Below are positions 1 to 5,297 of a DNA stretch of 5,297 nucleotides, one piece after another. The notes beneath the pieces were generated by a model, which was given only the letters and a program-made list of their open reading frames with translations, searched no databases and had not been told where the DNA came from. A program made the translations under genes and the position numbers. Positions within the stretch are counted from its first letter, which is position 1, and every line of letters begins with the position of its first letter. The DNA comes from a virus (lineage: Duplodnaviria > Heunggongvirae > Uroviricota > Caudoviricetes), in IMG/VR virus record IMGVR_UViG_2531839665_000011; one strand, written 5' to 3'.

Positions 1-1
1 C

Positions 2-973
2 AGCCAGCTTGCGGATGAGATGGCGGAGATGAAGACCACCATCACGAAACCCCGCAATGAAATCACACAGACGGTCAGTAAAACGCTGGAAGACCAGAGC
101 GCCACCATTCAGCAGATACAGCGCGTGCAGAAGGACACAAATGATGACCTGGCTGCGCTGTACATGCTGAAGGTTCAAAAAACGAAAGACGGCATTCCCT
201 ATGTGGCCGGTATTGGAGCGGGGATTGAGGATACTGATGGCCAGCCACTGAGCAACATACTGCTGCTGGCTGACCGTATCGCGATGATAAATCCGGAGAG
301 CGGCAACAGCACTCCGTTATTTGTGGCGCAGGGGAATCAGCTGTTCATGAACGACGTGTTCCTGAAGCGTCTGTTTGCGGCGAGTATCACGTCATCCGGC
401 AACCCCCCGACGTTTTCCCTGACGCCGGAAGGGAAGCTGACAGCCAGGAACGCGGATATCAGCGGAGCAATTACCGCGAATACCGGCACGCTCAATAATG
501 TCACCATTAACGAGAACTGTGTCATCAGAGGGAAACTGTCTGCAAACCAGATTGAAGGCGACCTGGTGAAGACGGTGGGGAAAGCCTTTCCCCGGAATAA
601 CAGTTATGCCAGCGGGACGGTAACCGTCACAGTTTACGATGACCAGGGCTTCGACCGGCAGATCATCATTCCCCCGGTGCTGTTTCGCGGGACGAAACAC
701 CAGAATTTCAACAGCCCGAATCAGCAGTCGTACTGGTATTCCACCTGTAAGCTGCAGGTGCTGAAGAACGGGGTTGAGATTTTCCATGAACCGGCAACGG
801 ATGTCAGCCGGGTGTTCTCATCGGTGATAGATATGCCGGCAGGGCGGGGTCATGTCACCCTGACGTTTAATGTGTCGTCGGCCGGTGCGAACAACTGGAC
901 GCCGACAACGTACATCAGTGATTTACTGGTTGTGGTGATGAAAAAATCCACAGCAGGTATCAGTATCAGCTGA
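2..973 (+). CDS. J: Phage tail tip host-specificity protein J (lambda J-like), C-terminal part; 5' end lies upstream of the window
   Basis: Reading frame is open from the first base of the window (no stop between 2 and the ATG at 20) to TGA at 971-973. Translation resembles the C-terminal receptor-binding region of lambda J as I recall it. Followed by a hairpin terminator and then lom and stf, the lambda gene order. Confidence 0.8.
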
Positions 974-990
974 ATTTTATAACCCAGAAC

Positions 991-1018
991 GGGCGTCAGA
1001 AATGACGCCTTTTTTATT
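991..1018 (+). terminator. Rho-independent terminator downstream of J (tJ-like)
   Basis: Stem GGCGTCA (992-998), loop GAAA, stem TGACGCC (1003-1009), then TTTTTTATT. Confidence 0.6.
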
Positions 1019-1039
1019 GCAGAAAAGCGAGAGGTAATT

Positions 1040-1433
1040 ATGCGTAAACTTTATGCCGCCATTTTGTCCGCAGCCATTTGTCTGGCCGTATCCGGTGCGC
1101 CTGCATGGGCGTCTGAACATCAGTCCACGCTGAGCGCGGGGTATCTTCATGTCTCGACGAACGTTCCCGGCAGCGATGATCTGAACGGGATTAACGTGAA
1201 ATACCGTTATGAGTTTACGGACACACTGGGGATGGTGACGTCTTTCAGCTATGCAGGAGACAAGAATCGCCAGCTGACCCATTACAGCGATACCCGCTGG
1301 CATGAAGATTCCGTTCGTAACCGCTGGTTCAGCGTGATGGCGGGGCCCTCTGTGCGCGTGAATGAATGGTTCAGCGCGTATGCGATGGCGGGCGTGGCTT
1401 ACAGCCGTGTGTCGACTTTTTCCGGGGATTATC
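1040..1433 (+). pseudogene. lom: lom 5' fragment (Ail/Lom/PagC-family outer membrane protein), interrupted by IS insertion
   Basis: RBS GAGAGG upstream of ATG 1040. Signal peptide MRKLYAAILSAAICLAVSGAPAWA, then sequence matching lambda Lom up to ...STFSGDYLR. The ORF then runs into IS terminal sequence (ITVKEIGE, stop at 1463-1465). The rest of Lom resumes at 4015. Confidence 0.85.
1429..1433. repeat. Target-site duplication, left copy (TTATC); alternative reading is a 7-bp ATTATCT at 1428-1434
   Basis: lom sequence ggggATTATCT is present at the left junction and ATTATCTccgcgtaactgac at the right junction; the overlap is the duplicated target. Confidence 0.5.
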
Positions 1434-1482
1434 TGCGTATTACCGTGAAGGAGATCGGTGAGTAACATCGATGGAGATCGGT
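1434..1482. repeat. IS left terminal inverted repeat region
   Basis: TGCGTATTACCGTGAAGGAGATCGGTGAGTAACATCGATGGAGATCGG pairs with the reverse complement of the right end, TGCGTATTTTCATGAAAGGAGATCACTCAATAACTTCCATCGAGATCGG. Confidence 0.6.
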
Positions 1483-1518
1483 TCGTGTCACTTTCACAGA
1501 ACCGTTTTTAAATTACCT

Positions 1519-2268
1519 TCACTGATCTCCTTCGGTCAACGGAGATTGTATTTTCCGCATTGATTCTCCTTTAAGTTCGATCTTGATACTGCCATGAACC
1601 AGTCGATCTAGGATGGCATCCGCATGTGTGGAGTCTCCGATCATTTTGTACCAGTTTTCCACCGGCAACTGGCTCACTACGATGATTGAGCCTCGTTGGT
1701 ACATCAGATCCACTATTTCCAGCAGGTCGCTACGCTGTTCTGATGAGAGAGGTTCCAGCCCCCAGTCATCCAGAAGCAGCAGATCGCTATTATTCAGCCT
1801 GGTCAAAAGTTTGCTGTATCTTCCATCAGCATGCCCCTGATAGCACTGTTCCATCAGCGCTTTAAGGCGATAATAGTAGACCTTGTATCCCTGTCGGCAG
1901 GCATTATGACCAAGTGCACATGCCAGGAACGTTTTACCGCTGCCGGTGGCCCCGGTCAGTAAAATATTTTGTTTCAGGGTTAACCAGTTTCCCTGACTGA
2001 GTGAACGGATGAGGGCCCTGTCCAGCCCTCTATTGTTACGATAATCCAGCTTTGATAACTCAGCATTAAGTCTGAACCGTGCATGTTTGATCAGACGCTC
2101 TGCCTTCCTGTTTTCACGGCAGGTTAGTTCTTCTGCTGTCAGTAATGACAGGCGTTCTTCGAAGCCCAGCTCCTGGTATGTGCCCGGCTGAGCAAGTTGC
2201 TTTTTAAGCGCATCACGGAAGCCGGTGAGTTTAAGTGCGGTCAGTTGTTCGTAAAGATGATTCATCAT
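1519..2268 (-). CDS. istB: IS21-family helper ATPase IstB (AAA+/DnaC-like)
   Basis: 249 aa. Walker A GATGSGKT and Walker B LLLLDDWG. Start ATG at 2266-2268 preceded by GGGA, 11 nt after the istA stop. Confidence 0.9.
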   Translation of the reverse strand: MMNHLYEQLTALKLTGFRDALKKQLAQPGTYQELGFEERLSLLTAEELTCRENRKAERLIKHARFRLNAELSKLDYRNNRGLDRALIRSLSQGNWLTLKQNILLTGATGSGKTFLACALGHNACRQGYKVYYYRLKALMEQCYQGHADGRYSKLLTRLNNSDLLLLDDWGLEPLSSEQRSDLLEIVDLMYQRGSIIVVSQLPVENWYKMIGDSTHADAILDRLVHGSIKIELKGESMRKIQSPLTEGDQ

Positions 2269-2279
2269 TGGATCCCGTA

Positions 2280-3281
2280 TCAGTGGTAATACTCACTGCC
2301 GCGTACGTTTTCGTGTTCCATCGTGGATAACAGATCTGGTTTTGGATCCTGAACAGGTTGTTTATCCAGACCTTTTTCCAGGATCGATTTAATACCTGAC
2401 AGACGCCATACCTTTGTTTTCAGAGCTCTTGCACATGCTGCATTAAGTCTGGCTTTACTGTATTTTTTATGAAGGTTCAGGAGTCCAAGGCAGAAGCGAT
2501 AGCTTTGTTCCGGATGTGGACGAGAGTTCAGTATATGAAGCACATAACTATGAGTTTCACTGCCTATGTGCCCCGCCCATTCCAGAAGACGCTCTGGCGT
2601 CCAGGTGGCATGCTGTCGATGAGCTTCAGGCATGTGCTCGTTGCGGGTACTGTAGCCATAAGTACGCTTGCGCGGGTGCACAGCAACCTCCTGCCCCTGA
2701 TTGAAGAGTCTTACCAGTTCTCCGGAGATCCATGCTTCCAGTTGCTGGCCTAACAGCGAACATGGAACCGAGTAGTAATGTTTGTCGATTTCCACGTGGT
2801 AATCGGCATGAACTCTGACTTTCTTCACCAGGGTGTAACTGTAACTGGCTTCAGGAAGAGGCTTCAGTGCGGGTTTATCAAGCTGGATGAAGAGTTCTGC
2901 ACGTGAATAACCCAACTTCTGCATTATTTTGTTATTCAGTCTTTCCAGCAACTCCCGAATGCGCTGATTAAGCGATGCAAGGCTGTAGAAGATCTCATGC
3001 CTGATTCGGGCCATGATCCAGCGTTCAACAACCTGAACGCCAACTTCAGCTTTGGCTTTATCTTTCGGTTTACGTGGCCGCGCAGGCAAAACTGCGACAT
3101 TATAATGCTCAAGCATCTGCTGGTAGGTAGGGTTAACGTCAGGATCATACTTACATGCCCTGGATGTGGCGCTTTTCAGATTGTCCGGAACAACAAGTTC
3201 AGGAACGCCACCCAACCACTGGAAGCAGCGAACATGACTCATCACCCAGTCTTCAAGCTGCTGAGACCAGGTGGTCTCTGC
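2280..3281 (-). CDS. istA: IS21-family transposase IstA, C-terminal catalytic part (downstream of an in-frame amber codon)
   Basis: Same frame as the N-terminal ORF. Contains VVPDNLKS (second Asp of DDE) and [14 protein letters not shown] (Glu of DDE). Translation is continuous across the 36 nt between the amber codon and the first internal GTG/ATG ([25 protein letters not shown]). Confidence 0.75.
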
Positions 3282-3821
3282 CTATGTGTAACTTGATGCC
3301 CCGAGAACAGCTACGATGACCTGAGCAGTTCTTATTTCTCCGGTCTCAGGGTCGGTAACGCCAACGGTAGGTCCACAGTAATCAACGAAAAGTTTTTCGC
3401 CAGCTTTATGTACCTGACGCATTGATGGTGAAGTGGTTTTGAGCCATTCACGGTACATCCGGCAGTAATGGTTATAGCTGTAAAAACCGCCTGGATTACG
3501 CTCACAGTATTCTTCCCAGAGTAGCTGCAGCGTCACGCATTTATTACGCAGTTCCCGGTGTACTGTAGCCCAGTCAGGCAGAGAGTGCTTCTTCATCTTA
3601 ACCTGGGTCTGAAGGAACGCATGTTTTAGTTTTGTATCATCCCATCCTGTAGGTAAGGGCCACTGCTTTATGCCAAGTTGAGCCGCCCGATTAGCATATC
3701 TGGATACAACGGAAGGGGAGATTGCAAGACTACGACCAATTTGTCGATGGCTGAGTCCAACACCGTATTTAAGCCTAAGAATTTCTTTAAGTTTTCTCAT
3801 AGAAATTGGAACTGTTGGCAT
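3282..3821 (-). CDS. istA: IS21-family transposase IstA, N-terminal part (HTH and first catalytic Asp region), ending at an in-frame TAG
   Basis: ATG at 3819-3821 with AAGGA 7 nt upstream. HTH-like LSHRQIGRSLAISPSVVSRY. LFVDYCG resembles the first DDE Asp region of IS21 IstA. Ends ...GASSYT at amber codon (plus-strand cta, 3282-3284). Confidence 0.75.
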   Translation of the reverse strand: MPTVPISMRKLKEILRLKYGVGLSHRQIGRSLAISPSVVSRYANRAAQLGIKQWPLPTGWDDTKLKHAFLQTQVKMKKHSLPDWATVHRELRNKCVTLQLLWEEYCERNPGGFYSYNHYCRMYREWLKTTSPSMRQVHKAGEKLFVDYCGPTVGVTDPETGEIRTAQVIVAVLGASSYT

Positions 3822-3885
3822 AGGTATCCTTTACCGGAATGGCAAAAGATACAGATCAACACACCTGTGAAGTTCCAATAACATT

Positions 3886-3997
3886 GATGGAGATCACTGA
3901 ATAACAAAATGAGTCAAAAGTGATCTCCATCGATGTTATTCAGCGATCTGTTCAAATGTTATTACCCGATCTCGATGGAAGTTATTGAGTGATCTCC
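3886..3997. repeat. Iterated terminal repeats at the IS right end (putative IstA binding sites)
   Basis: Motif GTTATT-N4-GATCTC(C) as three direct copies at 3935-3950, 3958-3973 and 3981-3997 (23-bp spacing) plus one inverted copy at 3889-3905. Perfect 12-bp inverted repeat GATGGAGATCAC (3886-3897) / GTGATCTCCATC (3920-3931). Confidence 0.7.
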
Positions 3998-4014
3998 TTT
4001 CATGAAAATACGCA
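3966..4014. repeat. IS right terminal inverted repeat region
   Basis: Reverse complement matches the left end with a few mismatches and indels; ends ...AATACGCA. Confidence 0.6.
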
Positions 4015-4019
4015 TTATC
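4015..4019. repeat. Target-site duplication, right copy (TTATC); alternative 7-bp ATTATCT at 4014-4020
   Basis: Same lom-derived sequence as at 1429-1433. Confidence 0.5.
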
Positions 4020-4225
4020 TCCGCGTAACTGACAACAAGGGGAAAACGCATGATGTGCTGACCGGAAGTGATGACGGTCGCCACAGCAACACGTCTCTGG
4101 CGTGGGGGGCTGGCGTGCAGTTTAACCCGACCGAATCCGTGGCCATTGATATTGCTTATGAAGGCTCCGGCAGTGGCGACTGGCGCACTGACGGTTTCAT
4201 CGTGGGTGTCGGTTATAAGTTCTGA
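4015..4225 (+). pseudogene. lom: lom 3' fragment (C-terminal ~70 codons of Lom)
   Basis: Translation YLRVTDNKGKTHDVLTGSDDGRHSNTSLAWGAGVQFNPTESVAIDIAYEGSGSGDWRTDGFIVGVGYKF matches the Lom C-terminus; stop TGA at 4223-4225. The listed ORF start (GTG 3989) lies inside the IS end. Confidence 0.85.
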
Positions 4226-4251
4226 TTAGCCAGGTAACACAGTGTTATGAC

Positions 4252-4279
4252 AGCCCGCCGGTTCAGGCGGGCTTTTTTG
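4252..4279 (+). terminator. Rho-independent terminator downstream of lom
   Basis: Perfect 8-bp stem AGCCCGCC (4252-4259) / GGCGGGCT (4266-4273), 6-nt loop, then a T-run. Confidence 0.6.
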
Positions 4280-4289
4280 TGGGGTGAAT

Positions 4290-5297
4290 ATGGCAGTAAA
4301 GATTTCAGGTGTACTGAAAGACGGCACAGGAAAACCGGTAGAGAACTGCACCATTCAACTGAAAGCCAGACGGACCAGCAGCACGGTGGTGGTGAACACG
4401 GTGGCCTCTGAAAATCCGGATGAAGCCGGTCGTTACAGCATGGACGTTGAGTACGGTCAGTACAGCGTCATTCTGTTGGTGGAAGGATTCCCGCCGTCAC
4501 ATGCCGGGACCATCACCGTGTATGAAGATTCTCAACCCGGTACGCTGAATGATTTTCTCGGTGCCATGTCGGAGGATGACGTCCGGCCGGAGGCACTGCG
4601 CCGTTTTGAACTGATGGTGGAAGAGGTGGCGCGTCACGCTGAGGAGGCGAAGAAGAATGCCGGAGAGGCGGAGACGTCAGCGAGGAATGCCGGCATATCA
4701 GCCAGTCAGGCAGAAGAGAGCGCTGCAAATGCTGACACTTCAGCAGGGGAGGCATCGGAGTCAGCCCGGCAGGCGGCAGAAAGTGCAGCCTCAGCAAAGC
4801 AGTCAGAGGATGCGTCCTCGTCCTCGGCTTCTGCGGCCGCTCAAAAAGCCAGTGAGTCATCACAAAGTGCAGCAGAAGCTGAATTGTCAAGAAAGACGGC
4901 AGAAAGTGCAGCCGGTAATGCAGCCAGGGATGCAACGACCGCAACAGAAAAAGCCCGGGAGTCAGCAGAAAGCGCACAGTCAGCGGAACAAAGCAGGATA
5001 GCGGCGGAAGAGGCCGTAAACCGAATCCCCACCGTGGTGGGACCTCCCGGGCCAAAGGGGGGAACAGGGGGCCCGCGGGTCCTCAGGGGCCGAAGGGTGA
5101 TAAGGGAGAGCGCGGTGACACCGGCCCTGTCGGGGCAACCGGCGAACGGGGACCGGCAGGTGATGCTGGTCCGGCAGGCCCGCAGGGGCCGAAAGGTGAC
5201 AGGGGAGAGCGGGGAGAGACCGGTCTGACGGGAAAATGCAGGTCCACAGGGTCCAAAGGGAGATACCGGTGCGGCAGGCCCGGCAGGCCCACAGGGA
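4290..5297 (+). CDS. stf: Side tail fibre protein Stf (lambda stf/orf401-like), N-terminal part continuing beyond the window; reading frame disturbed in the collagen-like region
   Basis: [17 protein letters not shown]...[25 protein letters not shown] matches the lambda Stf N-terminus, so ATG 4290 is the likely start rather than GTG 4284. Ala/Ser/Glu-rich segment, then Gly-X-Y collagen-like repeats from ~5040. Frame 0 hits TGA at 5226-5228 only because of frame slips at 5057-5071; the Gly-X-Y phase continues in another frame and returns to frame 0 after 5237. Confidence 0.8.
5040..5297 (+). repeat. Collagen-like Gly-X-Y triplet-repeat coding region within stf
   Basis: GPPGPKG (frame 0), then [56 protein letters not shown] (frame +2), then [19 protein letters not shown] (frame 0 again). 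Confidence 0.75.

Follow-up and report, generated by a model that had tools for sequence, protein, structure and literature searches.

Three single-base insertions in the collagen-like repeat of a prophage side tail fibre gene are very probably contig-end errors of a draft assembly

The window (i.e., the whole stretch of 5,297 nucleotides that was analysed) carries a side tail fibre gene, stf, whose collagen-like repeat is broken by three extra bases. We infer from sequence comparisons that these bases are, in all likelihood, errors of sequencing or assembly at a contig end, in what is otherwise an ordinary stf of the EPclA type. Most probably the gene itself is intact and encodes an EPclA-type side tail fibre with, in order, a PfN domain, a coiled-coil stalk, a collagen triple helix and a PfC domain. 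A preliminary description of this DNA had named a homopolymer sequencing or assembly error as its first choice, and that choice is supported by the placement of the lesions at contig ends, by the clean interior of the contig and by the intact stf of the complete genome JB2 (NZ_CP182203.1).

The window was identical over positions 1–5297 to the NCBI draft contig AFAA02000031.1, from an E. coli draft assembly (GCA_000194495.2). A look-up of the 5′ fragment of lom, a rare sequence since it is fused to the IS end, led to this contig. Since the window is the complete contig, both of its ends are contig ends. It holds the end of the tail module of a lambdoid prophage, with the genes J, lom and stf in that order and with lom split by an ISEc12 element (Table 1). 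The ISEc12 insertion in lom and the internal stop in istA were also present in JB2, and several draft contigs (L137–L141) had the same insertion together with the same stop. These two features, common to JB2, to L137–L141 and to the window, are the marks of one lineage. In the drafts L137–L141, which have this IS junction too, the contigs end sooner than the window does, both in J and in lom/stf. Both genes that reach the ends of the window are present in several copies in bacterial genomes: stf was found at a median of 7–9 places per genome having any, and J at a median of 4. A scan of the window against Rfam found no family, and a look-up of IstB returned matches to unrelated IS copies only.

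Table 1. Features of the window and its differences from JB2.
Feature	Position	Strand	Remarks
Difference from JB2 in J	45–53	+	CACGAAACCCCGC in the window, CACCGAAACCCGC in JB2 (CC -> C, CCC -> CCCC)
J, 3′ end	to 973		
ISEc12 target duplication	1428–1434 and 4014–4020		7 bp, ATTATCT
ISEc12 (IS21 family)	1435–4013		2579 bp, within lom
istB	1519–2268	minus	
istA	2280–3821	minus	internal stop after codon 179
lom, 3′ piece	between ISEc12 and stf		
stf (EPclA type), 5′ 1008 nt	4290–5297	+	ATG at 4290; runs off the contig end; deposited frame stops at 5226–5228
stf N-terminal PfN domain	4290–4688	+	PF08400 match, residues 1–133
Difference from JB2 in stf	4439		one SNP
Ala/Ser/Glu-rich low-complexity stalk	4689–5039	+	PCoil region of EPclA, predicted by likeness (position, composition, PMC3368898)
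Collagen-like Gly-X-Y domain	5040–5297	+	first 85 of ~111 residues, over three frames as deposited
G6 run, G5 in homologues and JB2	5057–5062	+	first +1 insertion (alignments); in no complete-genome copy
G5 run, G4 in homologues and JB2	5067–5071	+	second +1 insertion (alignments); in no complete-genome copy
Differences from JB2 in stf	5157–5264		11 substitutions in 108 nt; window has the VT1-Sakai and O111:H8 alleles
TGA stop in shifted frame	5226–5228	+	upstream of the third insertion
A4 run, A3 in homologues and JB2	5233–5236	+	third +1 insertion (alignments); in no complete-genome copy

EPclA (EHEC prophage collagen-like protein A) is a protein of 437 aa in total with the domain order PfN, PCoil, Col (111 aa) and PfC, and serves lambdoid and Stx prophages as their side tail fibre; ECs2717 and H0004 of VT1-Sakai are examples (Ghosh et al. 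2012, PMC3368898). The same paper lists frame-lost, defective EPclA* genes in finished O157:H7 genomes, namely Z1382, Z3309/Z3307 and ECs2159/ECs2158. The stf of the window occupies the position expected of EPclA, downstream of J and of the ISEc12-split lom, an order that homologous loci share with the window. Its N-terminal domain matched PF08400 (phage_tail_N) in Pfam with an E value of 1.6e-69, in the deposited as well as in the corrected translation. Residues 134–250, which would form the stalk, are rich in Ala, Ser and Glu and nearly identical to those of VT1-Sakai H0004. The collagen domain matched PF01391 (Collagen, E 6.3e-14) in the corrected translation only; as deposited, the reading frame of the PfN domain gave no PF01391 match and ended at the stop at 5226, whereas after removal of three bases it ran on to the end of the contig through 85 residues of perfect Gly-X-Y. 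The PfC domain (PF06820) was found in the homologues of JB2, VT1-Sakai and O111 7-54 11A, and in the window's gene it would lie beyond the end of the contig. Homologues of this stf are annotated as “prophage tail fiber N-terminal domain-containing protein”.

The preliminary description had also called the stf annotation unreliable, and we agree, as the public call on AFAA02000031.1 (L136) is a protein of 280 aa at 4386–5228. That call omits the true ATG at 4290 and stops at the artefactual TGA. Look-ups of the exact truncated stf products, 312 aa from the ATG at 4290 and 314 aa from a GTG at 4284, gave no match, because the public gene call begins at 4386.

Three-frame translation of the repeat revealed how the frame is lost. 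Frame 0 reads ...VVGPPGPKG and then nonsense up to the TGA at 5226–5228, just as had been described from the sequence, and the list of open reading frames has the same stf frame ending at 5228. Between the two G runs the repeat is in the +1 frame for two codons, E-Q, at 5063–5068, and from 5069 to ~5234 an unbroken Gly-X-Y repeat follows in the +2 frame. The clean +2 repeat noted earlier is thus present, but it begins at 5069 and not at ~5060, the stretch between the runs being in the +1 frame. Frame 0 resumes at 5235, and its first Gly codon is the one at 5241 from which the return to frame 0 had been reported. A run of ~55 consecutive in-phase Gly-X-Y codons in an alternative frame is not a product of chance.

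When one base was deleted from each of the three runs, as the preliminary description had proposed (positions 5062, 5071 and 5236), the repeat became 85 residues long, and every third residue of it was Gly without exception. This corrected repeat also matched a real homologue exactly, the protein of VT1-Sakai. The whole corrected stf product has 335 residues, of which six differ from VT1-Sakai H0004, all before residue 169, so that residues 169–335 are the same in both. The three insertions add up to +3 by coincidence, all three errors happening to have the same sign, and the sum restores nothing, since the TGA at 5226 is reached before the third insertion; for this reason we also rejected a functional compensated frameshift.

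An alignment to intact stf genes had been suggested as a check: the stf of VT1-Sakai is the same as the window over 4950–5297 except for the three +1 run insertions. A megablast search with positions 4900–5297 matched 722 complete-genome records and 296 phage records, and the top matches were all at 99.2% (395 bases aligned to 398), with none higher. The best match to the window as a whole was JB2, in which stf is annotated as an intact CDS. Over positions 54–5056 the window had no indels relative to JB2 and a single SNP, at 4439, where JB2 is the odd one out and VT1-Sakai and a second draft contig (L004, below) share the base of the window. All 17 other runs of at least 5 bases in that interval (A6 at 177, C6 at 403, G6 at 4104, T6 at 4273 and others) had the JB2 length, as did ~70 other runs of at least 4 bases in the interior of the window.

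The other differences from JB2 are found near the two ends. In addition to the three insertions in stf, a pair of indels at 45–53 in J changes the protein to ITKPRN from the ITETRN of JB2. This variant was private to the window, the best identity among 2783 complete-genome places being 98.2% and the best of these places having CACCGAAACCCGC as JB2 does, and it is probably another contig-end error. All five private indels (5/5) therefore lie no more than 53 nt from one contig end or 241 nt from the other, at 45–53 and 5057–5236, and none lies in 54–5056; the chance of five indels all falling in the terminal 294 nt would be ~5e-7, a crude and post hoc figure. The cluster of substitutions at 5157–5264 marks a switch of allele, which may reflect either recombination between prophage stf genes or a walk of the assembler into a paralogous copy.

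The insertions were then sought in other genomes. Neither the G6 nor the G5 insertion was present at any of 4864 places in complete E. coli genomes, where the best single-piece identity of 97.8% corresponds to both insertions missing, and the A4 insertion was absent from all 5229 complete-genome places (best 98.9%). Homologues with the same frame organisation, which in the preliminary description would, together with high-quality reads confirming the run lengths, speak against an error, were looked for, and no homologue shared the layout of the window. The wild-type string was present in at least 120 viral contigs, and apart from two draft contig ends the G5 and G4 lengths did not vary, either in these contigs or at the ~4,864 complete-genome places. 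The exact G6+G5 string had no match in genome_contigs or metagenome_contigs and one match in viral_contigs, the contig L004; the A4 string had no exact match in viral_contigs. Likewise, among 143 fetched loci the G5 insertion occurred in L004 and in the window itself (L136) only. Four two-piece BLAST joins that seemed better (H96 and H104–106) proved, when fetched or checked for the pattern, to be free of the variants, and a G6 string in L104 sits in an unrelated effector gene.

One-base indels that shift the frame elsewhere in stf were seen in 17/120 of the matches listed, which are draft-derived IMG/VR contigs with wild-type sequence at the first and second sites. Several of these indels lie in runs, and in some contigs their number reaches three or four. 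The contigs concerned were L013, L018, L023, L027, L028, L060, L067, L071, L082, L090, L094, L100, L101, L105, L108, L119 and L125; L018 and L094 had three indels each and L100 had four, at scattered positions. Frameshifts in stf are thus common in draft-derived contigs, whether as errors or as real pseudogenes.

The contig L004 (IMGVR_UViG_2537562191_000027; 11,774 bp) served as a matched control. It is from an O111:H8-like strain and represents another prophage, without an IS and with a J that is 87.5% identical to that of the window. Its G6+G5 pair lies within the last 235 nt of the draft contig, as part of four single-G insertions at 11541–11591 that include the same G6 and G5; the two further insertions change CCGTGG to CCGGTGG and TCCTCAGG to TCCGTCAGG, and the A run has the normal length, A3. 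The first 11,500 nt of L004 aligned with 100.0% identity and no gaps to the complete O111:H8 genome 7-54 11A (NZ_CP077574.1), in which the runs are G5 and G4, all four insertions are absent and stf is intact. We considered whether L004 could come from the genome of the window itself and rejected this, as its best finished match is O111:H8 and not JB2, i.e., a different lineage. The same over-long G runs thus stand near the ends of two draft contigs that are unrelated to each other while, in the sequences compared, their finished counterparts are without them; in both cases only the draft has the lesions, and a finished genome with the same element does not. With its four insertions L004 never returns to frame, and the net +3 of the window is therefore a coincidence. 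In the same tail region of NZ_CP077574.1 (L142), an antirepressor gene at 5558–6480 is annotated as frameshifted.

These data suggest how the errors may have come about. The unique core of the contig is lom split by ISEc12, and from it both contig ends enter near-identical multi-copy DNA, namely the 3′ part of J on one side and the collagen-like part of stf on the other. The consensus of such overhangs may be built from few reads, from read tails or from reads of paralogous copies. The run lengths would have been over-called, G5 as G6, G4 as G5 and A3 as A4, because the overhang consensus rests on such few, poor or paralogous reads, and at the left end one C would have been put in the wrong place. 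Both the sequencing platform and the cause at the level of reads are presumed here.

The main alternative is that the insertions are real and that slippage in short runs has caused the decay of stf in a prophage that is IS-damaged and probably defective, in which case the cell would make a truncated PfN-PCoil protein of 312 aa ending at 5228. This prophage is already damaged, with lom broken by ISEc12 and an internal stop in istA, and under the relaxed selection that such damage implies it would be no surprise if stf had truly decayed. In addition, frame-lost EPclA has been reported in finished O157:H7 genomes (PMC3368898), and both points weigh against an artefact; some of the 17/120 frameshifted draft copies may be genuine as well. 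Nevertheless, we consider real decay unlikely. The near-identical prophage of JB2, with one SNP in 5 kb and the same IS and istA stop, has an intact stf with normal runs, and a spectrum of five indels to a single substitution over the shared part is unlike that of natural mutation. Moreover, all five indels are at the two contig ends, the second pair being in J at the opposite end from stf; none of the variants was found in any finished genome; and the G6+G5 pair of L004 is absent from the finished genome that matches it. That the pair was seen in two unrelated strains could in principle indicate a real allele or a mutational hot spot, and this also counts against an artefact. We give little credence, however, to the proposal of a genuine hot spot of slippage at the G5 and G4 runs, which would recurrently gain one G each in independent EHEC/EPEC lineages and thereby turn off the side tail fibre; finished assemblies would then have to miss the variant through polishing or rarity.

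It has also to be asked whether the right end of the contig is chimeric, the assembler having passed into reads of a paralogous stf and the indels having arisen from the merging of copies that differ. This would fit the 11 substitutions relative to JB2 that appear after 5 kb of identity, where the window has the VT1-Sakai/O111 alleles, and the many stf copies per genome (median 7–9). On the other hand, G5, G4 and A3 were the lengths in every paralogous allele examined, so mixing alone gives no longer runs, and real recombination between prophages would explain the switch of allele equally well. As a full account of the indels a chimera is thus quite improbable, and it is in any event a variant of the contig-end error explanation and not a competitor to it. 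Hardly worth any weight is a functional role, either recoding by slippage of the ribosome or RNA polymerase at G6, G5 and A4 or an on/off switch at a G tract, even though the indels are in homopolymers with a net +3 and the G6+G5 pair occurs in two unrelated contigs. Recoding would need three successive +1 shifts, with the TGA at 5226 met before the third, and L004 with its four insertions shows no return to frame. Neither the same frame organisation nor any variation in run length was found in ~4,900 homologous copies (0/~4,900), and the window contains no Rfam element. Runs of 4–6 bases are also short for contingency loci. We therefore rejected programmed frameshifting, of which conserved frame organisation would be expected and for which no homologue shares the arrangement and the TGA comes before the third site, and likewise a phase-variable tract, for which the only exceptions to constant length were the two draft contig ends.

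The biological importance of this frame break is slight, and its practical use is in quality control. The gene beneath it is already well described, being a prophage side tail fibre gene with a collagen-like stalk, and the break is very probably no real feature of it. The stf call of 280 aa on AFAA02000031.1 and the ITKPRN variant of J are unfit as evidence of pseudogenisation or of a protein variant, respectively. Where a draft contig ends in multi-copy prophage tail genes, its last few hundred bases can have clustered one-base indels, and scans for frameshifts or pseudogenes should mask contig ends or compare them with finished relatives.

In comparison to known systems, the window is most like EPclA, with which it shares the PfN domain (PF08400), an Ala/Ser/Glu-rich stretch that would form the stalk, the Gly-X-Y repeat once this is corrected and the gene order J, lom, stf. 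It differs in having the collagen domain spread over three frames, with the open reading frame stopping at residue 312, and in that the contig ends before the C-terminal part of Col and the PfC domain are reached. The defective EPclA* genes of O157:H7 resemble it in that the frame of stf is lost inside or between domains; those genes, however, are in finished chromosomes, whereas the lesions of the window are at contig ends and confined to the draft, the closest complete genome being free of them. In laboratory lambda PaPa, stf is split into orf-401 and orf-314 by a single frameshift. Here, too, a side tail fibre gene is broken by a one-base frameshift, but that of lambda has been verified as a real mutation and affects a gene present in a single copy, while the lesion of the window bears no sign of being real. 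The window also resembles cases of homopolymer-length and contig-end consensus errors in draft assemblies. The likeness lies in one-base changes of run length confined to the last 53 and 241 nt, in ends that fall in multi-copy DNA and in a clean interior, with the same signature in a second draft contig (L004) that has a clean finished counterpart; the difference is that one insertion of L004, the change of TCCTCAGG to TCCGTCAGG, lies outside any run.
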